Source: Eubacteriales bacterium
GTDB taxonomy: Bacteria; Bacillota; Clostridia; JAQUNY01
Assembly (NCBI GenBank): GCA_028717405.1
Contig: JAQUNY010000001.1
Coordinates: 1-37,423 of the forward strand
DNA: 37,423 nt
Reading direction: 5' to 3'
Shown here one piece after another: positions 17,169 to 37,351 of this stretch. Position 1 is the first letter of the stretch, and each line of letters starts with the position of its first letter. The notes under the pieces are model-generated. The model saw nothing but the letters and a program-made list of their open reading frames with translations, made no database searches and was not told the DNA's origin. A program made the translations under genes and the position numbers.

Positions 17169-19100
17169 TCATTCAGCCTTTTTCAGGGTAAAAGCAAATA
17201 CCGATCCTCTGCCCGGCGTGCTTGATGCGAAGACCAAGCCGCCCATCAGCTCAGCCACATGCCTTGCAATAGACAGACCGAGGCCTGTTCCGCCTGTGCT
17301 TCCCCTTGATTTGTCAACTTTGTAGAACCTTTCCCATATGTGCCTCAGGTCTTCAGGCGATATTCCGGGTCCATTGTCTTCGACAGAAATTTTTAAATAG
17401 CCTCTTTCTTTGATTTCCTCTGTTTTTAAGCCCGGTACGGCATTAACATCTGCTCCTGCCCTGTCCATGACCTCTTCTGTCCTGATTCTGACTGTTCCGC
17501 CTTTTTGTGTATAGTTGATTGCATTATCAACTAATATAACAAGCAGCTGCTCAATTCTGTCCTCATTTCCCATCACTTTGGGAATGCTTTCTTCCTCTTC
17601 GTAAATTATCTTTATATCTTTTTTTTCACTTTGCAGCTTTAGTTTCGTCATAACGTTCACGATGATGCCCCCGACATCCATTGGCTCCATGTCAATCCGT
17701 GCATTGCCTGACTGGAGTCTGCTCAAATCAAGCAAATCATTGATCAATCGCTGAAGTCTCAGTGTTTCCCTGAAAATGATCTCATGATATCTTTCAATTA
17801 CATTCCTGTCGTCAACAGTCCCGTCGATCAGAGGCTCAATAAAGCCTCTTATTGATGTTAGAGGAGTCCTGAGTTCATGAGATATATTCGCCACATAGTC
17901 CTGCCTCAGCTGCTCCAGCTTTGCCGTCTCGCTGATGTCACTCAGCAGAGCAACGCTTCCTATTGTTTCATCAGAACCATCTGTTATGGGTGAAACAATG
18001 GCATGGATGGTGAGACCCTTTTCCGTGATATGATCGGTTTCCTCGGTCACACCGTATTTGAGCACCTCATCAATTGTATTCGCCAGCCATCTGTATTTTT
18101 CATGTCTCATACCTTCATTTTCAGAAATATCACTATTTCCTGCGCTGATTATCATATCCGGAGTTATCAGCCTGATATCAAGGAGTTCCATAAAAGCTCT
18201 GTTGTAATGTATGATTTTTTTATCCCGGTCTACTGCAAGCATCCCTTCGGAAAGGCTGGTCAGTATAAGCTCCAGTTTCTTTTTTTCGTTCTGCAGTTCA
18301 GTAATCGTGTTGTCAAGTTCACCGGAAAGATCATTGAGTGAATTGCCAAGCTGACCTATCTCATCATTTTTTCTGACTTCGATCCTTCGCTTGTAATTGC
18401 CGGCTACCATGGCTTTTGCTGTCCTGTTCATCTGGCTCAAAGGATTTGATATGCTCCTTGAAAGATAATAAGCTATTATGAGAGCAGGCAGCATTGAAGT
18501 GAATGCGGCGAAAATAAGCAGTCTTATTATGTTTGTATTTACTTCGCGGATATTGATTACCGGCTTGCTCAGAAAAAGTGCTCCCAGGAATTCTCCGGTA
18601 TCTTCAGAATTTACAGGTATTCCTATAGATATTGCGTTTTCACCCAGATATCTGGTATAACCGGTTTTAACGGTAGATTTCCCTTCATTGATAATTTTCA
18701 GGTCTTCGCTGTCGATTTTCATTCCCTTCTGTATGTTCGTGTCGCCATATATGCCTCTTGAAACTGCGAAAATTATCCCGTTTTTATCTGTGACCCAGAA
18801 GCGAATGCTCCAGACCTGTTCAAGAGAATTGATCAGATATTCAATGCTTATCTGGTCCATCCTCGTGTACATATGGGGCGATATTATCCTGCTCAGGTTA
18901 ACACCCCTTGCAGCCAGCTCTTTTTCTTCGGAGTTAATAAAATATCTGTACGAAAAACTTGTGAAAATAACAGCAATCAGCACAAGTGTTATAGCCATCA
19001 CCGCAATAAAAGAAATGATAAGTCTTCTGAAAAGTGTTCTTTTTGCTTCTCTGCCCTCGGGAACAATATGAATCAAGAAAGGATCACCGCCATATATCAA
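17169..19100 (-). CDS. Sensor histidine kinase (two TM segments, extracytoplasmic loop, HAMP, PAS, HisKA, HATPase_c; PhoR/WalK-like class)
   Basis: 643-aa ORF. The H-box is DYVANISHELRTPLTSIRGFIEPLIDG. The N, G1 and G2 boxes are VDNAINYT, EDNGPGI and GGTGLGLSI. The gene is immediately downstream of its response regulator. The start codon (TTG at 19100) is uncertain. Confidence 0.85.
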   Translation of the reverse strand: MIYGGDPFLIHIVPEGREAKRTLFRRLIISFIAVMAITLVLIAVIFTSFSYRYFINSEEKELAARGVNLSRIISPHMYTRMDQISIEYLINSLEQVWSIRFWVTDKNGIIFAVSRGIYGDTNIQKGMKIDSEDLKIINEGKSTVKTGYTRYLGENAISIGIPVNSEDTGEFLGALFLSKPVINIREVNTNIIRLLIFAAFTSMLPALIIAYYLSRSISNPLSQMNRTAKAMVAGNYKRRIEVRKNDEIGQLGNSLNDLSGELDNTITELQNEKKKLELILTSLSEGMLAVDRDKKIIHYNRAFMELLDIRLITPDMIISAGNSDISENEGMRHEKYRWLANTIDEVLKYGVTEETDHITEKGLTIHAIVSPITDGSDETIGSVALLSDISETAKLEQLRQDYVANISHELRTPLTSIRGFIEPLIDGTVDDRNVIERYHEIIFRETLRLQRLINDLLDLSRLQSGNARIDMEPMDVGGIIVNVMTKLKLQSEKKDIKIIYEEEESIPKVMGNEDRIEQLLVILVDNAINYTQKGGTVRIRTEEVMDRAGADVNAVPGLKTEEIKERGYLKISVEDNGPGISPEDLRHIWERFYKVDKSRGSTGGTGLGLSIARHVAELMGGLVFASSTPGRGSVFAFTLKKAE

Positions 19101-19108
19101 TTACTGTA

Positions 19109-19828
19109 TCAGCTTATGCCTGCAGTTTCTTTTGGATCAATATCAAATTTATAGCCTACTCCCCATACCGTTTTTATTGACCAGGGATGGCTTTTCCTGC
19201 TGCTGCTTTCAAGCTTCGCCCTGATTCTTTTTATATGAGTGTCAACTGTTCTGGAGTCCCCGAAATAATCATATCCCCATACGACCTCGAGCAGTTTCTC
19301 CCTGCTGAACACCCTGCCGGGGCTGCCGGCCAGGGTCCACATTATTTCAATTTCTTTGGGTGTGCAGATCACTGCCTCGTCATCAACCTTTATATAATAC
19401 TCAGTCATATTTATTTCCAGTCCCGGAAAGATTATCGAATCCGCGGGAAAAGTATCCCTGTCGTTTATCCGTCTCAGGACAGCCTTGACTCGCGCAGCCA
19501 CCTCTCTCGGGCTGAAAGGCTTTGTAATATAGTCGTCTGCTCCAAGCTCAAGTCCGATTATCCTGTCAAGCTCCTCGCCCTTTGCCGTCAGCATAATAAC
19601 AGGAATTTTTGATGTGTTCCTTATTCTTTTACATACTTCCATACCATCTATGTGGGGCATCATAATATCAAGCAATACCAGAGCGGGTTTGCCTGTCTGT
19701 ACTTTTTGCAGTGTCTCCTGCCCGTCTCCCGCGTGGATAACTTCATATCCTTCTTTTTTTAAATAGAGCGCAATTATCTCTCTGACATTTTCATCATCGT
19801 CAGCAATCAATATTGTATTTTTAGACAT
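19109..19828 (-). CDS. OmpR/PhoB family response regulator
   Basis: The receiver domain reads ILIADDDENVREI...LDIMMPHIDG...LTAKG. The C-terminal winged helix reads LTPKEIEIMWTLA...VFSREKLLE.VWGYDYFGDSRTVDTHIKRIR.KL...I.TVWGVGYKF. I moved the start to the ATG at 19828; the ORF-track GTG lies inside the RBS GGCAGGTGA. Confidence 0.9.
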   Translation of the reverse strand: MSKNTILIADDDENVREIIALYLKKEGYEVIHAGDGQETLQKVQTGKPALVLLDIMMPHIDGMEVCKRIRNTSKIPVIMLTAKGEELDRIIGLELGADDYITKPFSPREVAARVKAVLRRINDRDTFPADSIIFPGLEINMTEYYIKVDDEAVICTPKEIEIMWTLAGSPGRVFSREKLLEVVWGYDYFGDSRTVDTHIKRIRAKLESSSRKSHPWSIKTVWGVGYKFDIDPKETAGIS

Positions 19829-20140
19829 CTTTGTTTTCACCTGCCTCTTTCTTTAAGTACATTGGCTTTTTATCCCAGGCAACGCTCCCCAAACCCTGTA
19901 TATCTTTCAGATGCCCACATACCTTGTATTATATCGCACATGAAAAATCGATTCTACTCCGTGTACGGCTGCCGCTTTAAATAACTCAAATTCACAACTC
20001 TAACCGGCAGGTATAATCCGCTCAAATCAACTGTTTTCATTTTATTCCCACATTTTGTCGCTCATGTGTTATATATGTGAATAGGGTGTGACAGTGGATC
20101 CGCTTCTCTTTCTGCAGTTGTTTCAGCCATAACTGTGCTT

Positions 20141-21834: not shown

Positions 21835-23400
21835 TCAAGCGTCTTTCCCATTATCTGCACCAAATGAGTCTCTTATTTCCGCTTCCATCTCCTCGTATTT
21901 ATCAAGCAGCTTTATGAAAGTTTCAACTACTTCTCCGTCAAATTGGGTTCCCTTATTACCCTTAAGCTGTTTCACTGATTCCTCAAGGCTCATCTTTGGC
22001 CTGTAACTTCTGTCTGAAGTCATTGCATCAAATGCATCTGAAACAGCCAGTATCCTGGCCATCAAAGGTATCCCGTCCCCTTTGAGATTATCTGGATACC
22101 CTTTTCCGTCAATTCTCTCATGATGGCTCCTGACAACGGGAACGACTTCCCTGAAAAGAGATGATGCCGCCAGTATCTGCGCGCTTCTCAGTGGATGCTT
22201 TCTCATCTCTTCAAATTCCTCTTCCTCCAGTGCAGACGGTTTGAGAAGGATATTATCTGATATGCTTATCTTACCTATATCATGAAAAATGCCGCTGATC
22301 CTGAGCGTTTCAACCTGATCTCCGTTTAAGCCCATTGCTTCCCCTATCCGGGCCGAATAGTACGAGACCCTGTCAGAATGGCCTCTGGTATATACATCCT
22401 TTGCACCTACTGCCTGGCGCAAAGCTTCTATCGTATCGATATAGCTTTTTTTAAGCTGATCATATGTTCTTTCTATTTCATCATTTTTTCTTCTTACCAG
22501 ATCGTGGAGACAAATATTGCTGACAGCTGCCGCAACCTGTTCTGCAAAAATCTCTAAAAGCCTCTCTGTTTCTTCATTTGTATCACACTCGGTGTATATT
22601 GATCCAATAAATCCTGAAAATCTGTCTTTAAGAGGAAGAAGCATACCACCGGCCATCTTTAAAGGCCTTCCGAAAATCCTGGCTTCTTCGATCCCCGCCA
22701 GCAATTCCCTGTCAAGAAGCATTCTGTAATCCTTCTCTTCGGGAATCTCTCCTGCAGCAAATTCTCCCGTCCCTTTGAAAATTGTTTTTTTGACTTCAGT
22801 CTGCCCTGAACTGTTTCCTCCGCAGCTGTCATTTTCTGTATTTATTTCTGCCAGTATAAAGGAATTTTCCCTGCCGATTATCCGATTCATTTCCCCGAGC
22901 ACATTCATAAGGGCAGTATTAAAATCATTCAGATGATAAATCCTCGGAACAGAGTCAATTATGCGTCCCAGCCCATCCTTGAAGCTTTTTATCGTTCTCA
23001 TCTGGGCAACCGATTTTATTCCGGATTCGATAAGCAATAAAAGCTGCTCAAATTTATCGCTTTTCTCGCAATAGCCCTGTATATCAAGAGCTTTGATTGT
23101 TTCAAGCGGCGGTGCTATATCCTTATGTCCTGTGAGGAGGAGTATGTAAATATCTTTGTCGAATTCCCTTATGCTTTCAACGACCTTGTCTCCGTGTATG
23201 GGATTCATAAGATAGTCCAGTATCAGTAAATCATAATGTTCTTCCCTTAATATTCCCAGGGCTTCCACAGGGTCGGTAAAACCAGCGCAGCCATACCCGC
23301 TGCGGTTAAGTATAACCGAAAGTGAATCTATTATGCCTTCCTCATCATCTACAACCATGATCCTGTATTTTGATGACAAGTCCACCCTTTTTCTTCTCAT
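21835..23400 (-). CDS. Response regulator with REC, GAF-like and HD-GYP domains (predicted c-di-GMP phosphodiesterase output)
   Basis: The receiver domain reads IMVVDDEEGI...LLILDYLMNP...LLLTGH. A central segment of about 170 aa has a GAF-like pattern. The C-terminal HD-GYP domain reads GHSDRV...HDIGKI...HHERIDGKGYP. I prefer the ATG at 23400, which has GAGG 7 nt upstream; a GTG at 23403 is also possible. Confidence 0.85.
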   Translation of the reverse strand: MRRKRVDLSSKYRIMVVDDEEGIIDSLSVILNRSGYGCAGFTDPVEALGILREEHYDLLILDYLMNPIHGDKVVESIREFDKDIYILLLTGHKDIAPPLETIKALDIQGYCEKSDKFEQLLLLIESGIKSVAQMRTIKSFKDGLGRIIDSVPRIYHLNDFNTALMNVLGEMNRIIGRENSFILAEINTENDSCGGNSSGQTEVKKTIFKGTGEFAAGEIPEEKDYRMLLDRELLAGIEEARIFGRPLKMAGGMLLPLKDRFSGFIGSIYTECDTNEETERLLEIFAEQVAAAVSNICLHDLVRRKNDEIERTYDQLKKSYIDTIEALRQAVGAKDVYTRGHSDRVSYYSARIGEAMGLNGDQVETLRISGIFHDIGKISISDNILLKPSALEEEEFEEMRKHPLRSAQILAASSLFREVVPVVRSHHERIDGKGYPDNLKGDGIPLMARILAVSDAFDAMTSDRSYRPKMSLEESVKQLKGNKGTQFDGEVVETFIKLLDKYEEMEAEIRDSFGADNGKDA

Positions 23401-23452
23401 CACAATACCTCAGGCAACAGAATATCAATTACCGATATATCAATTGTCTAAA

Positions 23453-25276
23453 TCAGATGGTTTCAGGAATCGATATGTAAAAAGTGGTCCCCTCTCCTTC
23501 TTTTGATTCGAACCACATATTCCCGCCGAATCTGCCTTTTACATTGGCATAGGATATATAAAGCCCCAGGCCGGTTCCTTCTTTCCCCTTGGTCGTTATC
23601 ATTTCCTTGAACAGTTTCGGCTTAATATCTTCCTTTATCCCCTCACCATAATCCTGTATGGTAAATACAATATTACTATTATCATCTTTTTTGATGTTTA
23701 AGTCAATATCGCCGCTGGAGCCTTTATATGCTTGTATGGCATTTATTATCAGATTATCAAAAACCTGTATCATATTGCTGATATCTCCATCCAGCTTGGT
23801 ACCCATATCGATTTCTGAACTTACATTCAGCCTGCAGTGATATTTATTCAGTTCGTGCTTCATCAGCAATTCGACTCTCTTTATAAGTTCGTCTAATGTA
23901 AAGCTGAATAGAAAGGGAGTATTGTATTGGACAGTCTGCCCCTTGACAGTAGTGATGATATCAGACATATAAGAACAGTGAGGCTTCATCTTTTCAAGCC
24001 AGCCGGCCATTTCTGAAGCAATTTCATGGTGATCATCCCCGGTCACCAGTTCGTCGTCAATAGACTCATCATATTCGGCAACAAGGTCCTTCAATGCCTC
24101 AATGCCCCCCGAAACCGACATTATAGGCGTCTTGAGGTTGTGTGCTATGCCGCCGACCAGCTGTCCCAGCGAAACCAGCCTCTCGTGTTCCATAAGTATG
24201 CTTTGTTTTTCCTTTATGGTCTGCAGGTCCTTTACACTCTGCGTGATATCTTTAAGCAGGATGATTGCGCCGAGATAATTTCTTCTGGAATATATCGACG
24301 TTACCTCTATCATAAAATATTTATCAAAAGATCCCTCTCTTATATGCCTCTCAAAGGTTTCTGCCTTACGCGACTTTCTGGCCTTTGTTATGAATTCGGA
24401 TAATTCGTCTCCGTTTATTCCCATTTTCAGTTTTACATCCAGCAAATCGGGGAAATAATCATTCCTTTTTATACGGTAAAAATACTCAAACATATCAGCA
24501 AAGGTCCTGTTAAAGTCGACAATCCTCATTTCTTCATTTAGTACTACAAAACTGTCCGATATAAGGTCAACAACATTTTTAAGGGCTATAGGCACTATAT
24601 TGAGAAAATTGAATTTCATAATAGCATAGGCGTACATCACCACTGCTATTGAAAATGCCACAGGTGTGGCATATGCATTCAGTTCAGCCAAATTGAAGGT
24701 GGCCATTACATTAACGATAAGCGGTATCATTGTTCCAATAATTATCAGAAGCGATTGCCTGGAAATAAGGCCTGAATTTTTAATTGAAGTCCTGATGAGA
24801 AAGAACAGACCTGTTATAAAACATCCGTAGGAATACACGGCATGCACCAGGAAATAATAACCCGGCATTGTCTCGCTGTTGTTAAGCGAATATTTAATAT
24901 AAAAAAGCCCGTGCAAATCGTTTGTCATGTATATTACGGCAGACAACGCCGGGATAATTAACAGTAATAAATATCTTTTTGTAAAAACGATCTTTGATCT
25001 GGCAAATATCAGTCCGAAAAGCAGCATGGCAAGAGGCGTAAAAATCAGTCCAATATGCGTGACCGACAGATAAAAATTGTACGTTTTCCATTCGAACAGA
25101 TCCGCATAGGTCTCCATCAACAAGCCTATATCCCAGAGTATCATAAAAAACAGATAGCTCAGGAAAACATAATGTATCTGCGACTTATTCCTCATTTTCA
25201 GTATGAACGCCATTATTGCGGCGACAAGCAGAAGTGAAATATGAAGCATTGTGAATGAAACTGCTATGTCAGTCAT
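23453..25276 (-). CDS. Sensor histidine kinase with an N-terminal multi-pass (7TM-type) membrane domain, PAS, HisKA and HATPase_c
   Basis: About 230 aa of consecutive hydrophobic helices are followed by a PAS-like segment. The H-box is LVGGIAHNLKTPIMSV, and the N/G boxes are NLIINAIQA, QDYGEGI and GTGLGLYIS. I prefer the ATG at 25276, which has GAAGGTGAG upstream and overlaps the NRPS stop by 8 nt. The ORF-track start at 25297 has no RBS. Confidence 0.85.
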   Translation of the reverse strand: MTDIAVSFTMLHISLLLVAAIMAFILKMRNKSQIHYVFLSYLFFMILWDIGLLMETYADLFEWKTYNFYLSVTHIGLIFTPLAMLLFGLIFARSKIVFTKRYLLLLIIPALSAVIYMTNDLHGLFYIKYSLNNSETMPGYYFLVHAVYSYGCFITGLFFLIRTSIKNSGLISRQSLLIIIGTMIPLIVNVMATFNLAELNAYATPVAFSIAVVMYAYAIMKFNFLNIVPIALKNVVDLISDSFVVLNEEMRIVDFNRTFADMFEYFYRIKRNDYFPDLLDVKLKMGINGDELSEFITKARKSRKAETFERHIREGSFDKYFMIEVTSIYSRRNYLGAIILLKDITQSVKDLQTIKEKQSILMEHERLVSLGQLVGGIAHNLKTPIMSVSGGIEALKDLVAEYDESIDDELVTGDDHHEIASEMAGWLEKMKPHCSYMSDIITTVKGQTVQYNTPFLFSFTLDELIKRVELLMKHELNKYHCRLNVSSEIDMGTKLDGDISNMIQVFDNLIINAIQAYKGSSGDIDLNIKKDDNSNIVFTIQDYGEGIKEDIKPKLFKEMITTKGKEGTGLGLYISYANVKGRFGGNMWFESKEGEGTTFYISIPETI

Positions 25277-28200
25277 TGCTCTCACCTTCTTCCCCATTTA
25301 TATAGCTTGTGATCATGGCTGAAAGATATCGGGCTTCCGGCTTATTCCATTCAAATCCGAGTTTTTTAAGGTATCTTACTGTTTTAAGTCTCTGCACCCT
25401 GACCGGCAGCCTGTCACCTTTTTCCTTAATATAATCCATTCTCTGTATTACTCCCTTCAGAATATCAGCATAAGAACCATCTTCAGACAATTTTCTGATA
25501 AGCGCATCATATTCCCCTGCATTCATTTTTTTGATTCCGGCCCCCATTTTGCGCATTGCCGCCGCTATGTCTTCCAGTCCCAGTGTGTCGCCTGCGATAT
25601 GATATGTCCTTCCACAGTTACATTTTCTGCATGCGATGAGCCATACTGCCCTGGCACACAAATCTACCGGTGTAAGATCAATTTTACTCTCTGTACCGGA
25701 CCCTGTTGTTCCCGGGCAATATGCGCCCAGTCTGTACATTGCGTATATCATATTCCGAAATGCATTCTGACCTGTATTTATCTGAAAACGTCCGTCCTCA
25801 TACCTTGGCGTAATATTGCCGACTCTGAGAACAGCTGCTTTCAATCCATCCTCCGCCATTTTGTTGAGGATCTTCTCAGCTTCATATTTACTTCTTATAT
25901 ACGGATTACTGATCTCCTGCCCGATATCAAGGCTGTTTTCAGAAAAGACAGGAGCCATGCCTGCCAGCTTGACCGGGTCATAAACTCCCGCAATACCCGT
26001 TGTCGAAATATGGTACAGACACGCTCCGGACGATTGGGCGGCAGCTGCTGCTGTGACAGCGCCTTCAATGTTCGTTTTTGTAAAAGCCTCTTTTCTGCCA
26101 TAATGGCTCACAAGAGCAGCACTGTTTATCACTGCATCGGTACCCTCAACCAATCCCAAATAATCGTTTTCCGGCAGGCCGAATTTTTCCAGAGAAATGT
26201 CACCCTCAACAGCAAATATCCTTTTTCCAAACAATTGATCATATTTATTTCCAAAATAGAATCTGATAATCCCGGCAAGCCTTTTATCCGGGCTCATGTC
26301 ACTGTGATGCCTGATTATACAATACACATCGGCGCCGGATTCTTCTGCGATCACTGCAAGTATGTGTGCTCCCAGAAAGCCTGTTGCTCCTGTGAGAATA
26401 ATTTTTTTCATCTTATCATTGTCTTCATGCATCCCGCCATTTTCTGTGCCGCCTCTGTAATCTTTTTTATTGTCAAAAGCCAGGTAGTGTTTACCGTTAT
26501 AAACGATCTCAGGGTTTTCATTCACTGAGCTGTCTACGGCAGTGTTTCTCTTTCCTGCAATAATTTTTTCAGCCAGCCTCCTGATCGTTTGATATCTGTA
26601 AAAATCCTGCGTATGCAAACCCCAATTATAAGGAAATGCCTTTATCTGTACTTGAAGTATTGCGAGCGAATCACCCCCGCGATCGAAGAAATTATCATCT
26701 ATCCCAATATTTTCTTTCATGTCGAGGACTTCTTTCCATATCGATGCGAGCTGTTCATGAACCTTGTTTTCAGGCGCACTGTAAACGGCTTCACTCTGAC
26801 TTTGAACAGGTACTGTAGAAAGGGCTGTTCTGTCAATTTTACCGCTGGGTGTCAGAGGCATTGAATCAATTTTTCCAAAATACCCCGGTATCATGTACTC
26901 AGGCAGCCTGTCCGAAAGAAATTCTCTCAATTCTGCTATGGATATTTCTTCAGTTGAAATATAAAAAGCGCAAAGGCTTTTTCTTCCCTGCTCATCCTCC
27001 TTAAGGACCACCGCGACTTCCTTTATCCTCTCATGCTCAGAAAGCCTGCTTTCTATTTCACCCGGTTCGATCCTGTACCCACGTATTTTTACCTGGTGGT
27101 CGATCCTCCCCATAAATTCAAGATTGCCGTCCGCACCCCATCTTGCTATATCTCCGGTTCTATACATTATCATCCCCGGAGAAAACCTGTCAGGCAGGAA
27201 TTTCTCCGCAGTAAGCTGCGGCTTACCTAAATATCCCTTCCCGACACATTCACCTGTTATGTAAATCTCGCCCCATACACCGATCGGAGACAATGAGCCG
27301 TTTTTGTTCAAAACGTACACACCTGAATTACAAACCGGTTTGCCTATCGGCGGTACGGAAGGAATGTCTTTCCCAGGGTCAACTGTATACATTGTGGCAA
27401 CATGCGTCTCGGAAGGTCCATAATGATTATGCAGAAAAATCCTTCTTTCCTTAAGGAATTTTTTTAAAGTATTGTTTATTATAAGCTGTTCCCCAGCAAC
27501 AATTATATGCTTCAGCGAAAGAGGCAGCCTTTCAATTACACTTCTGTCAGATGCCATCAGTTTGAGATACGACGGCGGTATAAACAGAACGCTGACTTGT
27601 TCTTTTCCCGCCAGGTCTGTAAGTCTGACAGGATTCCTCTTTATCTCCTCATCTGCTATAACCAGTCTGCCTCCCGCCAGTAAAGTACTGAATATTTCCT
27701 GATAGCAAACATCAAAGCTTATTGTAGTAAACTGAAGGACATTAGCGCGAAAATCAATATTTGAGGAACCATATTCGGTCCGGATCAGATTTATGATGCA
27801 GCGGTGCGGTATAATAACGCCTTTTGGCCTGCCTGTCGAGCCTGATGTATATATAATGTATAATGTGCTTTCAGGATCTGCATCATGAAAAGCCTGGCCG
27901 GCATTTGCATTATATAAGGCATTGCCGGGCATGGACCGATCTCCTGTCTCCCGCACAAAATCCAAATCATCAATCACATTGCAGTCCCCTGAAGCTCTTC
28001 TGATCCTTATTATCCTTCCATTATATCCGGGGGGCACTTCACCCTCTCCGTCCCGGCAGATAAGCAGCGACGCTCCACTGTCATGAAGCATGTAAGCGAT
28101 TCTTTCTTCCGGGTAGTCCGGATCAAGCGGCAGGAACGCAGCTCCGGTTTTTATAATTGCAATAAGACATGCGACAAAGGTCGGCGAACGCTTCATCATA

Positions 28201-31200
28201 ATGCCTGCAACAGTACCTGAAGCAGCACCTTCGGATGCGAATGTCCTGCCAAGTCTTTCAGATAGCCTGTCAAGATCAGAATAGGAAATACTTTCGCCTT
28301 CACAGGTAACGGCGGCTGCATCAGGATACCTGGCGGCGCATTCTGAAAATGCACTGTGAATGGTATTTAACATTTTCAGGCCATTATCATTGCATAAACC
28401 GAGGTTATTCAACTCGTTGGTAAGGTTTTTCTTTTCTTTTCCTGATAATATATCAATATCAGAAATATGTGTTTCAGGTTTTTTAAGAACTTCCTTTATG
28501 ATATTGATATAATGTGAAGCCATTCTCTCAATTGTTTCTTTATCAAAAAGGTCAGAACTGTATTCAAGATTGAATATAATTCCTTCTTCCTTCTCTGTTG
28601 CCTCAAGAAGCATGTCGAATTTACTTGTTTCATTAAAAGCCTTGTAAGGAGTGAGCCTCAGTTTTCCGCTTCCTGCAGGTTCTCTGACCACGTAGCTGGC
28701 ATTTTCGTTTTTCTGCAATACAAACATCACATCAAAAATCGGATTTCTGCTTGGATCTCTCCTGACCTTAAGCTTGACGACAAGCTCATCAAACTGGCAA
28801 TCCTGGTTTTCAAAGGCTTTCAAAGAATTATCTCTGACAGAATGCAGAAAATCAGAAAAGCTCATTCCCCCGGCAGGAAAATTTCTCATAACAAGAGTAT
28901 TGGCGAACATGCCAATTATACCATTGGTATCGGCATGCCTGCGCCCGGTGACCGGTGTGCCGACGAGGATATCCTCCTGTCCGCTGTAGAACGCAAGCAA
29001 TACATTGTATGCAGCCAGAAGAAACATATACAGTGTAGCCGAGTGCTCAGATGCAATTTTTTTCATACAGGCAGTAAGGCTTTCATCTGCATAAAAGCTG
29101 TAAGTACTCCCCCTGTAAGTCTTTATTGATGGCCTTGGCCTGTCTGCAGGTATCATCAGCACAGGGATCTCATCCGACAGAAGCTCAAGCCAATATTCTT
29201 CCTGCTTCTTCAGATATCCTGATTCAAAAAGCCTGTTTTGCCACTCGGCAAAGTCTTTATATTGCGCTTTGACACGGCTGAGATCCGCTCCTTCATAAGT
29301 CTGTACAAGCTCGCTCATAATAATTCCGGCAGACACTCCGTCCGAAATGATATGGTGCATATCAATAAAAAGATAGTGTTTATCCAAAGGCAGAGTTATA
29401 AGCACCGCCCTGAAGAGAGGGGCTTTATCAAGCCTGAATGGTTTCGAAAATGATGCTGCCGCAATTCTTGCGAACAACTTGGGCTCATCAGCATGCTTAA
29501 GGACACCGGTCGGCAGGGATTCCCATAAAACCTCCTCATAGTCAGCGTCAACTTTGTCTGTGATGATCTGCACCGGCCCGCTGTCAGTGTTCCTGAAGCA
29601 GGTTCTCAGCGCTTCATGCCTCTTGATAAGTTTTTCTATGGATTTTCTTAATCTCTGTTTATCAAGATTTCCTTCTATCTGCAATATTCCCGAAGTATTA
29701 TATGCAGTACCGGTATCTTGCTGTTCAGTTAAAAGATAGAGCCTTCTCTGAGCCGCGGAAAGTTTATAGGATTCCTTTACAGGAACCGGAGTTATCGGCT
29801 CAAAGATATTTCTGGCGGTTTTTTCAATCATTAATGCAAGCTTCTCAACAGTCGGGTTGTTATACACATCTGTAGTTGATATCTCAACATTAAAGACTTT
29901 ATGTACCATGGATACCAGATATACAACACTCAGCGAATCTCCTCCGGATTCAAAGAGGTCGTCGTCAATACCGGCTTCACTTATACGCAACATGCTCTTC
30001 CATATGTCGGACAGCAGGATTTCTGTATTTGTTGAGGGCGGGCGGTAAGGCTTAGTATCTGTTCTGATGTAAACAGGCTTGGGAAGCATCGTTTTGTCAG
30101 TTTTTCCGCTTGCATTCACCGGCATGCTGCTTATCTGAGTAAAATATGACGGTATCATATAATCCGGAAGGAACCTTGATAAAAACGATCTCAGATAAGC
30201 ATTGTCAAGCTGTCTTTCTGCAGTATAGTAGGCACACAGTGTCTTCTTCCCTTCGCTGTCCTCCATGTCTGTGACAAAAACAGACTGCATATGTTCAAGC
30301 TGCATGAGCCTGCTTTCTACCTCACCGGTCTCTATCCTGTACCCTCTGATTTTGATCTGTCGATCTGCCCTTCCCGAAAATCTGATTTCACCGTTTGAAG
30401 TCCATTTCCCCAAATCGCCTGTGCGGTATATCCTCCCTTTGCTTCTGAAAGGATCTTTCAGGAAATTATTTCCCGGATGAATACCGCTGTTAATATATCC
30501 TATAGCCGGAGCTTCTCCTCCTATATAAATCTCGCCCTCTACTCCCGGCGGTACAGGCTTCATATTATTGTCAAGAATATAAATAAAAATATTTGCTGAA
30601 GGTTTCCCGAGAGAAATATCCCAGGCATTTACAATTTCCTTGAGTGTAGCTCCTATAGTGGCTTCAGTCGGGCCATATGCGTTATAAATTTTTGCTCTTG
30701 TCATCCGCCTTACTTTGTCCAGAAATCCAGGCCCGAAATCCTCTCCGCCTATCACAATTTCCTTTAAAATGCCAAGACATTCAGAGCTTTTTTTGTCGCT
30801 TATAAACATTCCCAGCCTTGAGGGTGTGATATAAAGCTTGTCAACCCCATATCTGAGTATAAGCTCCGAGAGCTTCCAGGGTACTTTTTGGGCCTCGTCA
30901 TCCGCAATTATGACGGTCAGGCCTTTCAGAAGGGAAGGTATCAGTTCGAAAATAAAAACATCAAATGAAATTGAAGTTATGGATAGAATCTTTGCGCCTT
31001 TTTTAAACAGGAGGCGTTCCGCTATTCCATGCGAAAAATTCACAAGTGACCTGTGGCTTACCACAACTCCCTTCGGAGTGCCTGTCGACCCCGAGGTAAA
31101 GAGGACATAAGCCGGATCTTCAGCTTTGTGCTTTTTCTCCAATAAATGCAGGGGAATCAGGCCTGTTTTTTCCAGGCCTTCAGTTTCAACTATTTTATGT

Positions 31201-32945
31201 ATGCCTGGATCATAATACCCGCTGTTTTTAATACTGTTTCCCAGCCCTGCCTGAGCTGCAATTATCCTTGTCCCGCTCTCCCTGACCATTAATCCTGCCC
31301 TGGCATCAGGATAGCCTGGGTCAACAGGGAGAAATGAGCACCCCGCCTTGAGCACTCCCAGTATGATTACTGCCAGATCAACAGATCTTCCTGCTATGAT
31401 ACCTGCTGTTTCGCCCTTCCTGAGGCCGTTTTCCAAAAGCCGTTCCGCAAATAGTGAGGCTTTTATATCCAGCTCTCCATATGTCAGTGCGGCATCTTCC
31501 GAAATAACTGCAATCGCGTCAGGTGTCCTTGCCGCCTGTTCTTCAAAAAGACAGTCCACAGTTTTGTCAAGCCTGTATTTTTTCACAGTATTGTTGAAGT
31601 CAATGAGCACTGCATTTATTTCCTCATCACTCATTACCCTGAGTTCTGAAGCTTTTTTCCCGGGATCAGCAACGATATCTTCAAGTATAAATACGAGACG
31701 CCTGTGGATACCGTTTATGTCATCTTCAGTGAAAAGTCCCTTCATGCAGTCGTAATCGATCTCAATACTGCCGTCATTGTCTCTCTCATTCACATGTATA
31801 CAAAGCGGATCAGTCTGATTTCCATTGAAAAGCCACTCAGCCTCATATTCGCCGATCCTTTCAAACAGGTTAAGCCTGGCATTCTGGTATGACAGGACTA
31901 TTTCATATAAATTATGTGAAAACCTCTGTTTTTCTCTCAGCTCTCTGAGAAGTTTTTCATAAGGATACTGGTGGTGCCTTAGTATCCTCATCCAATCAGC
32001 TGCAAAGCCCCTGGCCAGCGATGTGAAATCCTTTTCACCATCGAAATTTATTCTGAATGGTATTGTACTTACAAACATACCGGAAACGTTTTTCTCTTTC
32101 CTGTTTATCCTGTTGAGCACAGGAGTCCCTATCACAAAATCACGGCTCCCATGGATCCTGCTTATATAGACTGAAACCGCTGCAAGGAACAGGATAAAAG
32201 GCGAAATGCCGTTGGACGAGCAGTATTCACCAAGTGAGCCTGCAAGAACAGGATCAAGCCTGTATGTCCTTCTTGTAGATTCAGTCCCTGTAAGATGAGA
32301 ATGCCTGTTTTCCTTCAGCACAGGTTCCGGTATTTTTTCAAAGCTTTTGATCCAGAAATCTCTGTCCGCAACGGGTCTTTCAGATGACAGATAATCGTTT
32401 TCGCGTTTTATAAATACATCATAGCCCGGAAACTCTTCTTCCGGGATCTCTTCTCCCGTTTTAAGACATGTGTAATACCTGACAACCCGGTTTGTAAGCG
32501 ACACCATAGTCCATGCATCACATATGAAATGATGCAGTTTAATATAAAATCCTCCGCCTGAGCCGGCGGTCCTGAAAACAGCAAAATAGTGAAGGCACGA
32601 ATCCGCAAGTACAAAGGGAGTCGCGGTCATTTGCCCTTGCCATCTTTCAAGCTCCTCCCCGTCATTTCTGCTAAAATCAAAATATTCTGTTTTTGCCGGA
32701 AGCCCATTGTAAAAATACTGATGAGGCTCTGTATCAGGATCGGATATCCTGATTGAAAGAGACCTGTCTCTCCGGAGGATAACGGCGATTGCTTCCATGA
32801 GCAATTCACAGTCACAATCATTTTTAATTTTAATTATAGCGGCGATGTTTCCGATCGATGTTCCCGAATAAAGCTTCTCGAGGTACCATATTCCCTTCTG
32901 CGGCTGAGTCAAAGGATATCTGCCAGAATTACCCGCCATTTGCAT
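25269..32945 (-). CDS. Bimodular non-ribosomal peptide synthetase: starter C - A - T - C - A - T - thioester reductase (R)
   Basis: Single intact 2558-aa ORF. All core NRPS motifs were located by eye (see the sub-features). There is no E, TE, Cy or MT domain. The second in-frame ATG at 32939 is better spaced from the RBS GGGGGA than the first ATG at 32945. Confidence 0.97.
   Translation of the reverse strand: [2558 protein letters not shown]
25326..26408 (-). other. NRPS terminal thioester reductase (R, SDR-type NAD(P)H-binding) domain, about aa 2180-2540
   Basis: The sequence [16 protein letters not shown] gives the Rossmann motif TGxxGxxG (aa 2185-2192). YIRSK gives YxxxK at aa 2349-2353. 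It is the final domain after T2, and no thioesterase is present. Confidence 0.85.
26556..26768 (-). other. NRPS domain T2 (peptidyl carrier protein), about aa 2060-2130
   Basis: [16 protein letters not shown] with the Ser at aa 2093. Confidence 0.9.
26820..28373 (-). other. NRPS domain A2 (adenylation, proline-like specificity code), about aa 1525-2042
   Basis: Motifs found: [29 protein letters not shown] (1699-1709), FDVCYQE (1744-1750), [48 protein letters not shown], and PSGK (K2036). The hand-aligned 10-residue code is DVQFIAHVAK. Confidence 0.85.
28446..29774 (-). other. NRPS domain C2 (condensation, LCL-like), about aa 1058-1500
   Basis: The N-terminal motif is [13 protein letters not shown] and the HHxxxDG motif is HHIISDG at aa 1197-1203. 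There is no preceding E domain. Confidence 0.85.
29811..30032 (-). other. NRPS domain T1 (peptidyl carrier protein), about aa 972-1045
   Basis: [14 protein letters not shown] with the phosphopantetheinyl Ser at aa 1004. Confidence 0.9.
30081..31568 (-). other. NRPS domain A1 (adenylation), about aa 460-955
   Basis: Motifs found: LTYGEL (aa 487), [23 protein letters not shown] (616-626), FDVFIFE (661-667), NAYGPTE (755-761), [16 protein letters not shown] (840-848), [20 protein letters not shown], and A10 NASGK (K948). Confidence 0.9.
31626..32921 (-). other. NRPS domain C1 (starter/lipoinitiation-type condensation domain), about aa 9-440
   Basis: The HHxxxD motif is HHFICD at aa 138-143. 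The N-terminus [25 protein letters not shown] resembles my recollection of the surfactin SrfAA starter C domain (YPLTDAQKRIWYTEKFYPHTSISN). This is the first domain of the protein, with no upstream T domain. Confidence 0.7.
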
Positions 32946-32989: not shown

Positions 32990-33018
32990 ATTTTATCATA
33001 ATATTTCCTTTTAGTTAA
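32990..33018 (-). promoter_or_regulatory. Candidate promoter immediately upstream of the NRPS gene
   Basis: On the minus strand, TTAACT (33018..33013) is followed by a 17-nt spacer and TAAAAT (32995..32990), with the extended -10 TGa. It lies in the AT-rich 138-nt gap between phoU and the NRPS. Confidence 0.45.
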
Positions 33019-33083: not shown

Positions 33084-33806
33084 TCAGCTTTCGTGTTCTG
33101 TTAAGTTACCGTTTGTAGCTTGAAATTTCAGATGCTCCTGCGCCATACGCTCTTCGATTTCCTGGTTTTTATGCACGCCGGTCATTGAAAATTCGACCCA
33201 TTCAGCAATATTTGTAGCATGGTCGCCTATCCGTTCAAGGTATTTGGCTATCATCAGAAGGTCCATTGCCTGCCCCCCGTTATCAGCGTCATCATGTATC
33301 ATTTTTATCAGGTCGTTCTTAACTGTTAAGAATAGCCTATCAACAATATCATCCGCTTTGATGATTTCCCTGGCAAGCTCAAGATCCTTTTTAACATAGG
33401 CGCTGATACTTCCCTTTACCATCTTCACCGCCTCGCGAGCCATCTCCGGGATGGTTTCCAGCTTTTTTATGTAAATGCAATCCGACAGATATCCTGCTAT
33501 TTCAGATATATCCGCCGCCTGATCTCCTATTCTTTCCATATCCGTTATCATCTTCAACGCAGCTGAAATAAGGCGCAGATCCCTGGCAACCGGTTGCTGC
33601 TGCAAAAGCAGTTTCAGGCAGAGGGCTTCGATGTCCTGCTCCTTTCTGTCAATGACCATGTCAAATTCTATTACCTTGTTTGCCTTTGCAGCATCCTGTT
33701 CGATCAGCGCTTCCACCGCTCCCGTTATGGAATTTTCCACCAGTGTGCCCATCTGGATAAGCTCATCATTAAGCTGTTCAAGCTGTGAGTCAAACCGGCT
33801 CCTCAT
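33084..33806 (-). CDS. phoU: Phosphate signalling complex protein PhoU
   Basis: 240-aa ORF with two PhoU repeats carrying the E(D)xxxD-type motifs (DLRLISAALKMITDMERIGDQAADI and AKYLERIGDHATNIAEW). It is immediately downstream of pstB, with a 1-nt overlap. Confidence 0.93.
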   Translation of the reverse strand: MRSRFDSQLEQLNDELIQMGTLVENSITGAVEALIEQDAAKANKVIEFDMVIDRKEQDIEALCLKLLLQQQPVARDLRLISAALKMITDMERIGDQAADISEIAGYLSDCIYIKKLETIPEMAREAVKMVKGSISAYVKKDLELAREIIKADDIVDRLFLTVKNDLIKMIHDDADNGGQAMDLLMIAKYLERIGDHATNIAEWVEFSMTGVHKNQEIEERMAQEHLKFQATNGNLTEHES

Positions 33807-34588
33807 TATCCAAACCTCCCTGTTATGTAATCCTCTGTCCTCTTGTCTTCCGGAACAGAAAACAATTTTTCAGTTTCTCCCGCTTCAATTATTTCGCCAA
33901 GAAGAAAAAACGCCGTTTTGTCAGATATCCTCGCAGCCTGCTGCATATTGTGAGTAACAATAACAATGGTGTATTCCTTTTTTAATTCAAGGATAAGATC
34001 CTCTATTTTAGAAGTCGAAATAGGATCCAGCGCACTTGTTGGTTCATCCATGAGCAATATCTCGGGTTTTACAGCCAGTGCCCTGGCTATACAAAGCCTC
34101 TGTTGCTGGCCGCCTGAGAGGCTTAGCGCATTTCGGCGCAGACGGTCGCTGACTTCATCCCATATAGCTGCGCTCCGAAGAGACAACTCTACAATTTCAT
34201 CCAGCCTGACCCTGGATCTGATGCCATGTGTTCTCGGTCCATATGCTACATTATCATAAATACTCATCGGAAAAGGATTTGGTTTCTGAAAAACCATGCC
34301 TACACGCTGCCTCAGTATGTTCACATCAATATGTCCATGTATGTTTTCACCGTCTATTATTATTTTTCCCTCTGTCCTGCAGCCCTCGATCAGGTCGTTC
34401 ATTCTGTTTACAGCCCTAAGCAGGGTCGATTTGCCGCAGCCTGAAGGGCCTATAAATGCACTTATTTCGTTAGCCTTAAGCCCAATACTGACATTCTTTA
34501 TAGCTCTGAATTCTTTATAATATACATTAACATTTTCGATTATGATTTTATTAGTCTTATCAATATCATCAATATATGGATTTTTCAT
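33806..34588 (-). CDS. pstB: Phosphate ABC transporter ATP-binding protein PstB
   Basis: Walker [10 protein letters not shown], the signature [14 protein letters not shown] and Walker [13 protein letters not shown] are present. The C-terminal [10 protein letters not shown] is PstB-typical. Confidence 0.95.
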
Positions 34589-35523
34589 ATTTTAGCCGCC
34601 TTCTTTGCGATCACTGACGAGATCGTGTTGATAAATAGCACCAGCAGCAGAAGAACTACCGCTGTAGCAAAGGCTTCATTTGTATTAAAGCCTTCTCCTG
34701 ATAAAATATACATATGTACTGACAAGGTCCTGCCTGAATCCATCAGGAAATTACTTCCCGATGGTATCCCCGCTACCGTGCCGGCAGTATATATCAGCGC
34801 CGCAGTCTCGCCGGCAATGCGCCCCACTCCCAGTATAACCCCTGCAAGTATTCCCGGCACGGCAGAAGGAAGCACTATTTTAAAAACCGTTCTCAGCTTG
34901 CCCGCTCCCAAACCGAAACTTGCTTCCCTGTAACCGTCAGGCACTGACTTTAATGCCTCCTCTGCTGTCCTCATTATCAGAGGCAGGACCATAATTGCAA
35001 GGGTTGCGCTGCCGGCCAGTATGGAAAACCCCCATCCAAGATAAGCCACAAAAAACAGAAGGCCAAAGAGGCCGTATACAATCGACGGTATGCCGGAAAG
35101 AGTCTCAGAGGTAAGCCTGATCAGGGCTACCAAACGATTTCCCCTCCCTGCATACTCCACAAGGAAAACCGCGGCAAATACACCAAGCGGTACAGAAAGA
35201 ACAAGTGATACCAGGGTAATCACCAGAGTATTGATAATAGCCGGGAACATTGACACATTCTCCGATGAATAAACCGGTGAAAACAGAGAAAGCCTTAAAT
35301 GCGGGATCCCTTTTGCCAGAATATACCCAATGAGGAAAACAAGCATGCCAAATGATAACGAAGCTGAAATAATTACAAGGCTCTTAAGTGCAAGAGAACC
35401 CGGTTTGATGCGCGGCCTGCAGCAAACTATTCCTTCACCGCTGATTTCTCCTGATCCGGAAGGTACCGGGCAGGATTTGTTCCCGGATAATTTATTTATA
35501 ATTGATTTTACTTTACTTCTCAT
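34585..35523 (-). CDS. pstA: Phosphate ABC transporter permease PstA
   Basis: 312-aa polytopic membrane protein with the EAA-like loop ([31 protein letters not shown]). It is the second permease in the pstSCAB order and has 4-nt overlaps with both neighbours. Confidence 0.9.
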
Positions 35524-36419
35524 TCTGCAGCCTTTCTGCCAAGCATGTTAAATATGATGTTTATTGCAAGAATGAATATAAACAGGACCACTCCTGTCGC
35601 AATCAGGGCCCCTCTGTGCAGATCGGCGGCATATCCCATCTCAAGCACGATATTTGCCGTCATTGTTCTCACTCCTTTTAATATGCTTACAGGCATTCTG
35701 GCCTGATTGCCTGCAATCATTATCACAGCCATGGTTTCCCCGACAGCCCTTCCTGTTCCAAGCACGACTGAGGCCAGGATCCCCGACCTTGCCGCCGGGA
35801 GAACAGATGTAAAAACGGCACGTTCATGAGTCGCCCCAAGAGCAAGAGCTCCTTCATAATACTGTTCAGGTACCGCTTTCAGCGCCGCCTCACTAACTCC
35901 GGCTATTGTCGGTAATATCATGATCCCCAGAAGCAATGAAGCAGTCAATATACTGTAGCCATTTCCCCCGAAAATATTTCTGATAAAAGGTACAAGCACC
36001 ATCAGTCCGAAAAAGCCGTAAACCACCGAAGGAATACCGGCAAGCAGTTCCAATGCAGGTTTCAGGAAACCGTAAAATTTGCGCGGACAATAATGCGACA
36101 TAAAAACCGCAGTCAATAATCCAACCGGCACCCCCAGCAATATTGCGCCGGTGGTTACGGCAAGACTGCCGGCAATCATAGGCAGGATGCCGTATGACGC
36201 CGGGACATCTCCCGGCGCCCATAGCGTACCAGTCAGGAAATCTTTAATACCTATCTCATACATTGCCGGGAAACCGTTGATAAACAGAAATATACAAATA
36301 AGGAGCACCGATACTACCGACGCCGATGCGGCTACCATGAAAACCATTTTCATTATATTTTCAGAGGCCAGTCTTTTGGCTTCCCCGTCTTTGTCCGGTT
36401 TTTTCCTGTTTTCATCCAT
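35520..36419 (-). CDS. pstC: Phosphate ABC transporter permease PstC
   Basis: 299-aa polytopic membrane protein with the loop EAALKAVPEQYYEGALALGATHERAVFTSVLP. It is the first permease after pstS. Confidence 0.9.
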   Translation of the reverse strand: MDENRKKPDKDGEAKRLASENIMKMVFMVAASASVVSVLLICIFLFINGFPAMYEIGIKDFLTGTLWAPGDVPASYGILPMIAGSLAVTTGAILLGVPVGLLTAVFMSHYCPRKFYGFLKPALELLAGIPSVVYGFFGLMVLVPFIRNIFGGNGYSILTASLLLGIMILPTIAGVSEAALKAVPEQYYEGALALGATHERAVFTSVLPAARSGILASVVLGTGRAVGETMAVIMIAGNQARMPVSILKGVRTMTANIVLEMGYAADLHRGALIATGVVLFIFILAINIIFNMLGRKAAE

Positions 36420-36421
36420 AT

Positions 36422-37351
36422 TTATTTACTATTTACCTCATCCCAGCTTTCGATCTCTCCGATATAAATTTTTCTTACATCTGAGCTTTTCAGTCCATCC
36501 AGAGGATTTGAGTTGTTAACGATCACCGCTATCCCGTCAAGAGCTATTGCCAGAGGATCAAGCTCTTCAAGCTCGCTGGCCTTGAGCTCGCGGCTTGCCA
36601 TACCTATGTCGCATGTCCCATCCCTGGCTGCTGTCATTCCGGCTGTCGAATCACTGGTCTGTACCTCTATGACAGCACCGGTATTGACCACCCTGTAGGC
36701 TTCTACCAGTTTTTCCATTATAGGTGACACTGACGATGAACCTGCTATTACAAGTTTTCCTGAAGGCTTAGATCCGCTGTACATCTCCGCCGCATCATTC
36801 ACGGCAATATAGCCTTTAGCTACAACAGCCTGGCCTTCCCTGCTCATGACAAATGCGATAAAATCTTCAGCCAAAGCTGAAATGACCCCTTTCCTAACGG
36901 CTACATTAAACGGCCTCGCTACATTGTATGATTTATTTTTAATGTTTTCAACACTTGCTGCGGCGCCATCTATGGAAAGCGCTTTGACAGAGTCGTTTAG
37001 TGAACCCAGTGATATATAGCCGATCGAATATTTATCTCCGGCAACACCTGTAAGAACCACATCTGTTTTGTTAGCTATTATGGCTTCAACAGTTGTACGG
37101 TCTGTCTTTTTCCCGTCAGTGCCTTTTTCTTCTATCCCCATGAGTTCGATAAAAGCTCCCCTTGTTCCGGATCCGCCTTCACGCGATATCACATTAATCT
37201 GCCTTGAGCTGTCAAATGTGTCATTATCTGCACCCGGAGATGAGCACCCTGTAAGCGCCGTTAAGAAAATCACTGCCGCTGCTGCTGCAGCCAGTTTCTT
37301 TACTTTTTCCCCCATGGGAATTTCCTTTCTCATTTTAAACATATTAAACAT
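36422..37351 (-). CDS. pstS: Phosphate ABC transporter substrate-binding lipoprotein PstS
   Basis: It has a signal peptide with the lipobox LTGCSS. The PstS/PBP-like sequences GSGTRG..., GYISLG and IAGSSSVSP follow. Two starts are plausible, ATG 37351 (RBS AAGGGG) and ATG 37315 (RBS AAGGA). Confidence 0.9.
   Translation of the reverse strand: MFNMFKMRKEIPMGEKVKKLAAAAAAVIFLTALTGCSSPGADNDTFDSSRQINVISREGGSGTRGAFIELMGIEEKGTDGKKTDRTTVEAIIANKTDVVLTGVAGDKYSIGYISLGSLNDSVKALSIDGAAASVENIKNKSYNVARPFNVAVRKGVISALAEDFIAFVMSREGQAVVAKGYIAVNDAAEMYSGSKPSGKLVIAGSSSVSPIMEKLVEAYRVVNTGAVIEVQTSDSTAGMTAARDGTCDIGMASRELKASELEELDPLAIALDGIAVIVNNSNPLDGLKSSDVRKIYIGEIESWDEVNSK

Follow-up and report, generated by a model that had tools for sequence, protein, structure and literature searches.

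A reductase-terminated peptide synthetase with a proline-type terminal module next to a conserved sensor kinase and HD-GYP regulator in a Clostridia contig

Background

Several described systems bear on the locus reported here, a nonribosomal peptide synthetase (NRPS) gene followed by genes for a sensor kinase and a response regulator in a stretch of 37,423 nucleotides from a Eubacteriales bacterium (GenBank assembly GCA_028717405.1, contig JAQUNY010000001.1; the whole stretch is called the window below). The closest are bimodular NRPSs with a terminal thioester reductase (R) domain, namely AusA/PznA of Staphylococcus aureus and a family from gut Clostridia that is said to make dipeptide aldehydes; the family is reportedly the subject of work by Guo et al. 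in 2017 and is said to include the ruminopeptin of Schneider and Balskus in 2018. The synthetase in the window shares the bimodular, reductase-terminated layout and has relatives in human-gut metagenomes. However, it has an N-terminal condensation (C) domain that is probably of the starter type, a second module of proline type and a host related to Ruminiclostridium and Acetivibrio.

A second comparison is with the pyrrolobenzodiazepine pathways. There, NpsB (tilivalline and tilimycin) and TomB (tomaymycin) follow the order C-A(Pro)-T-R, in which A is an adenylation domain and T a carrier domain, and transfer of the prolyl thioester from the carrier to the terminal reductase gives an N-acyl-prolinal. 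The synthetase in the window would likewise hand a prolyl-S-carrier to a terminal reductase. NpsB is listed as a proline domain with the specificity code DVQYYTLVCK (PMC12283262 Table S11). In these pathways the acyl partner is an anthranilate, loaded by an aryl A/T pair of its own, and ring closure of the aldehyde yields a diazepine, whereas module 1 of the synthetase in the window is an amino-acid module behind a probable starter C domain, and no gene for an aryl A domain or an aryl carrier protein is found in the window. The C domain of TomB is a weak relative of the first C domain (36 bits).

The downstream genes recall signalling systems. In agrBDCA of staphylococci and in RpfF/RpfC/RpfG of Xanthomonas (diffusible signal factor, DSF), genes for signal synthesis and for a sensor kinase are adjacent and co-oriented, as they are here. 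In agr, hypervariability affects both agrD and the sensor of AgrC; in relatives of the window, conserved flanks likewise enclose a hypervariable block made up of the part of the synthase that sets specificity and the part of the kinase that forms the membrane sensor. The regulator is like RpfG in its REC-HD-GYP output. Here, unlike in those systems, an NRPS would make the signal, in place of an enoyl-CoA hydratase or a peptide of ribosomal origin; the kinase is a HisKA_7TM protein (7TM, seven-transmembrane); no DNA-binding regulator accompanies it; and sensing is a predicted function.

Results and discussion

The second adenylation domain has a proline-type pocket

The synthetase gene (25269..32945; this and all other features given with coordinates lie on the minus strand) is the longest open reading frame (ORF) in the window and encodes 2558 amino acids. 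Pfam matches to its translation follow the order C-A-T-C-A-T-R, with two each of the Condensation, AMP-binding and PP-binding domains and a C-terminal NAD_binding_4/Epimerase region, and the product is a predicted bimodular NRPS of the order Cs-A1-T1-C2-A2-T2-R (Cs, putative starter C domain). The catalytic motifs located in the translation are all intact. Residue numbers count from the ATG at 32945, that is, in the 2558-residue version.

The domain of most interest is the second adenylation domain (A2; 26820..28373, residues 1525-2042, the second AMP-binding domain), with L-proline as its predicted substrate. Its code was extracted by BLOSUM62 local alignment to GrsA-PheA at positions 235/236/239/278/299/301/322/330/331/517; as an internal check, the GrsA-PheA reference returned the canonical DAWTIAAICK at the code positions. 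The pocket residues are D1745, V1746, Q1749, F1788, I1815, A1817, H1841, V1849, A1850 and K2036, which spell DVQFIAHVAK. The original prediction had read the same code by hand, and all residues and motifs that it quoted lie where it placed them except for F278, which is residue 1788 and not 1798 as given there through a counting slip. It was also right to place the code one residue from DVQFIAHVVK (position 331, V to A; codon of A1850 at 27396..27398), which is the most frequent characterised proline signature, with 15 domains including FenD, PpsD, ItuA, MycB and BmyD (PMC12283262 Table S11).

The code conforms to the proline signature D-V-Q-[FYLSH]-[IVA]-A-H-V-x-K. Among proven proline domains V236 and Q239 are nearly invariant, and position 331 is occupied by V, I (MchB), T (TaaA), C (BptE) or A, the last in BrpA (DVQYIAHVAK), CpnD (DVQFAAHVAK) and LedF (DVQHAAHVAK) (PMC12283262 Table S11). 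Because position 331 varies in this way, the V331A difference is within the known range for proline. A2 agrees with GrsB1, TycB1, FenD/PpsD, ItuA and MycB in D235, V236, Q239, I299, A301, H322, V330 and K517, and departs from these classic domains in having A331 instead of V. At position 278 its F is shared with FenD and PpsD; in the same register the residue of GrsB1 and TycB1 is S. The setting also differs, in that A2 belongs to a termination module before a reductase and the classic domains belong to elongation modules.

The register of position 278 is itself ambiguous in the classic modules. A gap-free alignment sets SFPV of GrsB1 and SLPV of TycB1 opposite FIPP of the window (27570-27587, residues 1787-1792). 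Both domains are tabulated as DVQSIAHVVK, with S at 278 (PMC12283262 Table S11), and the following residue, F703, counts in the GrsB1 structure paper among the mutated positions of the binding pocket (bioRxiv 10.1101/2023.04.03.535426). In the window F278 is unambiguous, since it stands in an ordinary F-I-P-P-S context.

The resemblance extends beyond the ten code positions. We compared a 151-residue query spanning positions 235-331 with solved structures in the Protein Data Bank (PDB), and it aligned without gaps over 147 residues (1724-1870) to GrsB1 (8p5o; 172 bits, 53% identity) and TycB1 (9bfd_B; 166 bits, 51% identity), the textbook proline modules; the third-ranked solved A domain scored only 55 bits. 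Since the alignment to both modules has no gap anywhere in the pocket region, the match of the code to proline is not a matter of chance. Pocket identity to these two domains is as high as that to A2 of the closest homologues of the protein (52-60%). With full-length A2 as query, TycB (491 bits over 353 residues) and GrsB rank high among solved relatives. The N-terminal half of A2 (residues ~1626-1690, window ~27880-28070) contains extra residues relative to LgrA, before core motif A3.

Directed evolution of GrsB1 bears on the altered position. The triple mutant H322A/V330Y/V331A used piperazate 80-fold better and still preferred proline (bioRxiv 10.1101/2023.04.03.535426). Of these three positions, only 331 is altered in A2. 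The solved relatives, the curated signatures and the directed evolution of GrsB1 are independent lines that agree, and they argue strongly that A2 activates L-proline, an assignment that we regard as very probable.

The code DVQFIAHVA(K) is also found in module 1, and not in the terminal module, of two human-gut metagenome contigs (L107, OHAF01000609.1; L117, OGYP01000060.1) and of the protein P0047, all three of which carry related kinase-linked NRPSs. The proline-type domain with A331 is thus a variant that recurs in Clostridia and may sit in the first or the second module. Broader searches gave little. Matches to A2 among representative proteins were mostly giant multi-module NRPSs and were uninformative on the frequency of Pro-T-R termination, and a word-indexed protein search with the 151-residue fragment returned only four short fragments. 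Text searches of the literature for the strings DVQFIAHVVK or DVQLIAHVVK returned zero or nearly zero matches, such codes being mostly printed in tables.

Domain order predicts an N-acyl-Xaa-prolinal

Behind A2 lie a carrier domain (T2; 26556..26753, the second Pfam PP-binding stretch, GGDS at residues 2090-2093) and the terminal thioester reductase (25272..26402; Pfam NAD_binding_4 and Epimerase). The NAD_binding_4 match has an E value of 1e-39, and a TGxxGxxG motif and a Thr/Tyr/Lys triad follow the carrier domain. The Pro-T-R termination proposed earlier is indeed encoded, with A2 followed by an intact carrier (Ser2093) and then by a reductase with TGATGFLG (residue 2185), HIST (2312) and YIRSK (2349). 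Given this domain order with intact motifs, an N-acyl-Xaa-prolinal is a reasonable prediction and the most likely product, where both the N-acylation and the arrest at the aldehyde are features that we infer.

The N-acyl group is suggested by the first condensation domain (C1; 31626..32921, N-terminal, Pfam Condensation, HHFICD at residues 138-143). Its closest solved relatives are CDA-C1 (4jn3) and RzmA-Cs (7c1h/7c1k) with 89-92 bits, and ordinary C domains score only slightly lower. CDA-C1 and RzmA-Cs are structurally characterised starter (lipoinitiation) C domains, and an N-acyl product fits because C1 resembles such domains most; we think it rather more probable than otherwise that the product is N-acylated. 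Solved relatives of the R domain are the carrier-reductase structure Mru_0351 PCP-R (6vtj), MxaA-R, which is second-best, and AusA-R, which scores almost the same as MxaA-R. MxaA-R forms an alcohol and AusA-R an aldehyde. For the whole protein the top NCBIfam model is AusA (NF047350), with a score of 1335 against a cutoff of 2500; because the score is so far under the cutoff, the synthetase is better described as an analogue of AusA than as its orthologue. From these relatives, release as an aldehyde rather than as an alcohol is the probable outcome.

The predicted route to the product has three steps. The putative starter C domain would acylate the first amino acid, chosen by the first adenylation domain (A1; 30066..31568, located by the GrsA alignment and by Pfam/NCBIfam; code DVFYVGAIGK), which is followed by the first carrier (T1; 29832..30014, Pfam PP-binding 978-1038, GGDS at residues 1001-1004). 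The second condensation domain (C2; 28419..29777, Pfam Condensation 1057-1509, HHIISD at residues 1197-1202) would join this acyl-amino acid to the L-proline loaded on T2 by A2. The NAD(P)H-dependent reductase would then free the thioester, most likely as the N-acyl-Xaa-prolinal. A substrate assignment for A1 was dropped, as its code found no convincing match among characterised codes. By its predicted architecture the enzyme belongs to the known reductive-release dipeptide NRPS class, and its predicted terminal proline sets it apart within that class.

The synthetase, kinase and regulator form a conserved unit

The gene downstream of the synthetase (23453..25297) encodes a histidine kinase with an N-terminal 7TM sensor (Pfam HisKA_7TM, E 9e-38, and HATPase_c); seven hydrophobic segments are found at residues 15-235. 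The start of the kinase gene overlaps the stop of the synthetase gene by 29 nucleotides, or by 8 nucleotides if Met8 is the true start. Next comes a gene for a response regulator of the Pfam order REC-DUF3369-HD-GYP (21835..23403). The regulator has the HD (residues 373-374), HHE (427) and GYP (435) motifs and is for this reason a predicted phosphodiesterase of cyclic di-guanosine monophosphate (c-di-GMP); its top NCBIfam match is a response-regulator c-di-GMP phosphodiesterase, at a score under the model cutoff. From this arrangement, the synthetase is predicted to be translationally coupled to, and co-transcribed with, the kinase and regulator genes.

We looked for the same arrangement elsewhere; the observations in this section cover the window and the loci L001-L009, L013, L021, L027 and L086-L165. 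The synthetase is present as a single copy in a collection of 5.8 billion protein clusters, and its closest colinear homologues are 40-44% identical. In all five such homologues that could be located (L001-L005) the kinase and regulator genes directly follow the synthetase gene, and all other neighbours differ. The A2 domains of the homologues P0031, P0057 and P0120 have the proline-type code DVQFIAHVVK; those of the other two are not of proline type. The kinase is also kept, among the matches listed, by distant reductase-terminated NRPS loci in metagenome-assembled genomes (MAGs) of gut Clostridia from rabbit, sheep, Hadza and Brazilian sources. These distant loci come from a scan of GTDB genomes with a T2-R alignment, in which the 40-44% identical relatives were not among the matches listed. 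In the loci L014-L020 (Blautia, Roseburia and Lachnospiraceae MAGs), the reductase-terminated NRPS is of a split C-A-T-R form and has no downstream 7TM kinase among the matches listed. Gut Clostridia therefore seem to have two distinct families of reductive-release NRPSs.

With no more than the kinase as its seed, a scan of metagenomes yielded 80 loci, many of them labelled human gut. Wherever upstream DNA is available, NRPS sequence abuts the kinase gene, and nearly all of these synthetases are reductase-terminated and bimodular; most loci with downstream DNA have REC/HD-GYP matches after the kinase. In one locus (L101, JGI24707J26582_10003243), C-A sequence directly precedes the kinase gene with no detectable T-R between them, and this may be a truncated or misassembled version of the trio. 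The synthase, sensor kinase and regulator are thus conserved as an adjacent, co-oriented unit. In 70 loci an NRPS ORF of more than 1000 amino acids ends at the kinase start, and a terminal proline-type code is present in four of these (the window, L001, L002 and L003), DIYTVGI[VI]L being the dominant terminal code. A terminal proline is rare in this kinase-linked family. A literature search returned no prior description of an NRPS/HisKA_7TM/HD-GYP circuit, but Guo 2017 and Schneider 2018 were outside its scope and the result is not proof of novelty.

Synthetase specificity and kinase sensor vary together in relatives

In relatives of the window we compared the two genes pairwise, for 48 non-identical kinases whose genes were each preceded by that of a complete bimodular NRPS. 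Residues 15-235 of the kinase were taken as the 7TM part and residues 366-612 as the catalytic part, and A-domain codes were scored as differing when they did so at at least four positions. Where catalytic parts were at least 90% identical, identity of the 7TM parts was 99% for pairs with agreeing A codes (n=60) and 53% for pairs with differing codes (n=11). At a catalytic identity of 80-90% the corresponding values were 81% (n=24) and 56% (n=33). The observed partial regression coefficient was reached in none of 500 label permutations.

The boundaries of the variable region are clearest in the pair L004/L005. DNA identity is 89-99% over the upstream gene and C1, falls to 50-71% where A1 begins and stays there across R and ~220 codons into the kinase gene, and returns to 91-99% in the remainder of the kinase and the regulator. 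In the pairs L107/L120 and L110/L130 the downstream breakpoint likewise lies where the 7TM region of the kinase ends. In close relatives, the segment from A1 to R together with the 7TM region is one hypervariable cassette between near-identical flanks. Because a single block covers the specificity segment of the synthetase and the sensor of the kinase, as in agr, a synthase-receptor pair is indicated.

We also asked whether the four loci with a terminal proline share a similar sensor, and dropped the idea as not distinctive, since 7TM identity is 42-56% for all pairs. That these loci do not stand out in the 7TM region is explained by differences in module 1 as well as by the age of the lineages.

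A model for the locus and its alternatives

We favour a model, with somewhat more confidence than doubt, in which the Cs-A1-T1-C2-A2(Pro)-T2-R synthetase makes an N-acyl-Xaa-prolinal that is sensed by the adjoining kinase. The cognate ligand of the downstream 7TM kinase would be the lipopeptide aldehyde set free by the reductase, whether as such, as a hemiaminal or after cyclisation, and the ligand-bound kinase would control c-di-GMP hydrolysis through the REC-HD-GYP regulator. The resulting circuit would be of the autoinducer type, analogous to agr or RpfF/RpfC/RpfG. As the synthetase sits in a conserved unit with a kinase and a c-di-GMP-degrading regulator, its product may be a signal and not only a protease blocker. 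That the product is the ligand of this kinase is, taken by itself, a claim to which we would give at best an even chance. Inhibition of prolyl-specific serine peptidases could be an additional activity; inhibition of prolyl oligopeptidase in particular is possible, and here we speculate.

A number of points weigh against this model, and they are best considered with the alternatives to it. The exact code DVQFIAHVAK occurs neither in PMC12283262 Table S11 nor in the literature that we searched as text, and some proline-type signatures are common to pipecolate and azetidine-2-carboxylate domains such as CmxB, VioB and AzeB (PMC12283262 Table S11). The substrate of A2 might instead be a proline analogue (4-methylproline, hydroxyproline, pipecolate, piperazate or azetidine-2-carboxylate), the V331A change deepening the pocket; A331 is part of natural piperazate-type codes and is one of the three changes behind the 80-fold gain in GrsB1 (bioRxiv 10.1101/2023.04.03.535426). 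However, A2 retains H322 and V330, the GrsB1 triple mutant itself still preferred proline, the proven proline domains BrpA, CpnD and LedF have A331, and the same code recurs in P0047 and in module 1 of two relatives from the gut, L107 and L117. Precursor-supply genes for methylproline, pipecolate or piperazate are absent from the 37-kb window, and a literature search for methylproline linked to DVQF codes gave no match. We consider an analogue very unlikely. A different objection concerns release. The sequence of an R domain does not reveal whether it carries out a two-electron or a four-electron reduction (PMC8024701), and the alcohol-forming MxaA-R is the second-best solved relative, so that the product might be an acyl-Xaa-prolinol, or an aldehyde captured immediately in cyclic form, as a hemiaminal or an imine, with no free warhead persisting. 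Against this stand the almost equal score of the aldehyde-forming AusA-R, the AusA model as the top NCBIfam match, and the release of aldehydes by the related Clostridia family as reported in passages of PMC8210680 and PMC12327764; loss of the free aldehyde by either path seems to us quite unlikely. A further point against the model is that genes for a phosphopantetheinyl transferase, an acyl-CoA ligase and an acyl carrier protein are absent from the window.

The remaining alternatives accept the predicted chemistry and question the link to the kinase. N-blocked prolinals are classic inhibitors of prolyl oligopeptidase, and a starter C domain with Pro-T-R termination would give just such a scaffold. 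The product could thus be secreted and act in the main as a transition-state inhibitor of serine peptidases specific for prolyl residues, with the kinase and regulator merely regulatory or unrelated, and passages of PMC8210680 and PMC12327764 cite products of related gut Clostridia NRPSs as protease inhibitors. However, the neighbouring genes include none for a target, for resistance or for an exporter, the sensor kinase and the HD-GYP regulator are the only conserved partners, and a kinase sensor that varies with the specificity segment of the synthetase is not predicted by a pure inhibitor model, which we judge unlikely. The covariation could itself be hitch-hiking, in which the 5' end of the kinase gene is by chance part of the block exchanged by recombination and the kinase responds to another stimulus. 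As the divergent block runs without a break from A1 across R to the N-terminus of the kinase, linkage and recombination could produce covariation in the absence of ligand recognition. Moreover, the covariation is seen in relatives, and the lineage of the window is too divergent for the comparison, its 7TM region being 42-48% identical to that of every relative. Chance inclusion does not readily account for three independent pairs in which the downstream breakpoint coincides with the functional boundary where the 7TM region ends, nor for an upstream breakpoint at the C1/A1 boundary in L004/L005, and adjacency is kept in relatives with kinases only 37-60% identical to that of the window. We regard hitch-hiking as somewhat unlikely, and retain the model of a synthetase product sensed by the adjoining kinase.

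Gene start and genomic surroundings

The longest version of the synthetase ORF begins with MQMAG. A GGGGGA ribosome-binding site is better spaced for the ATG two codons downstream, at 32939, than for that at 32945, and the database copy of the protein (P0001) has 2556 amino acids and begins at this second ATG. The true start is therefore probably the ATG at 32939, and the residue numbers used here are probably 2 too high.

Upstream of the synthetase is a complete phosphate-uptake operon, pstSCAB-phoU (33084-37351), which encodes a PBP-like PstS, two permeases, an ATPase and PhoU and ends 138 nucleotides before the synthetase gene. A consensus scan of this gap found a promoter-like site, TTAACT-17-TAAAAT with an upstream TG (32990..33018). 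This is weak evidence, but given the position of the site in the phoU-NRPS gap the synthetase is probably under its own promoter. On the other side of the trio are genes for glutamate dehydrogenase, a second two-component system, seryl-tRNA synthetase, ClpB and RecD2, none of which looks biosynthetic. The second two-component system, past the glutamate dehydrogenase gene (17169-19840), comprises a kinase of the order HAMP-PAS-HisKA with a regulator of OmpR type and is not conserved beside the synthetases of relatives. About 21 kb from the synthetase (2943-4124) is a gene for an M24 metallopeptidase that resembles Xaa-Pro peptidases, its N-terminal domain being of the Creatinase/Prolidase type; we saw no link between it and the cluster.

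ClpB of the window is 79-81% identical to ClpB of Ruminiclostridium, Pseudobacteroides and Acetivibrio, and the housekeeping proteins of the window are singletons in clusters at 90% identity. This kinship and the singleton clusters suggest that the host belongs to a sparsely sampled lineage related to the cellulolytic cluster-III Clostridia and is neither an established human-gut taxon nor kin to a known human-gut Lachnospiraceae.

Conclusions

If A2 does activate proline, the synthetase would be a rare member of the dipeptide-aldehyde NRPS class in which the warhead residue is proline. A warhead of this kind would steer the product to proline-specific serine peptidases, and not to the cathepsin- or calpain-type targets discussed for the known compounds. 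The surroundings of the gene weigh more than its proline code, as they tie this NRPS class to a dedicated 7TM kinase and a predicted c-di-GMP phosphodiesterase.

We tentatively propose, with somewhat less than even confidence, that the bimodular reductase-terminated NRPSs of Clostridia, including those abundant in the human gut, are quorum-sensing-like signal synthases, the acyl dipeptide aldehyde of which would be read by the downstream 7TM kinase and relayed to the HD-GYP regulator. The segment from A1 to R and the sensor would then make up an agr-like 'pherotype' cassette, and the acyl-Xaa-prolinal predicted for the window would be a rare pherotype. If the kinase senses the product, the role of these widespread gut Clostridia metabolites for their producers would be strain-specific cell-cell signalling, and the window would offer a chemically distinctive ligand-receptor pair with which to test it.

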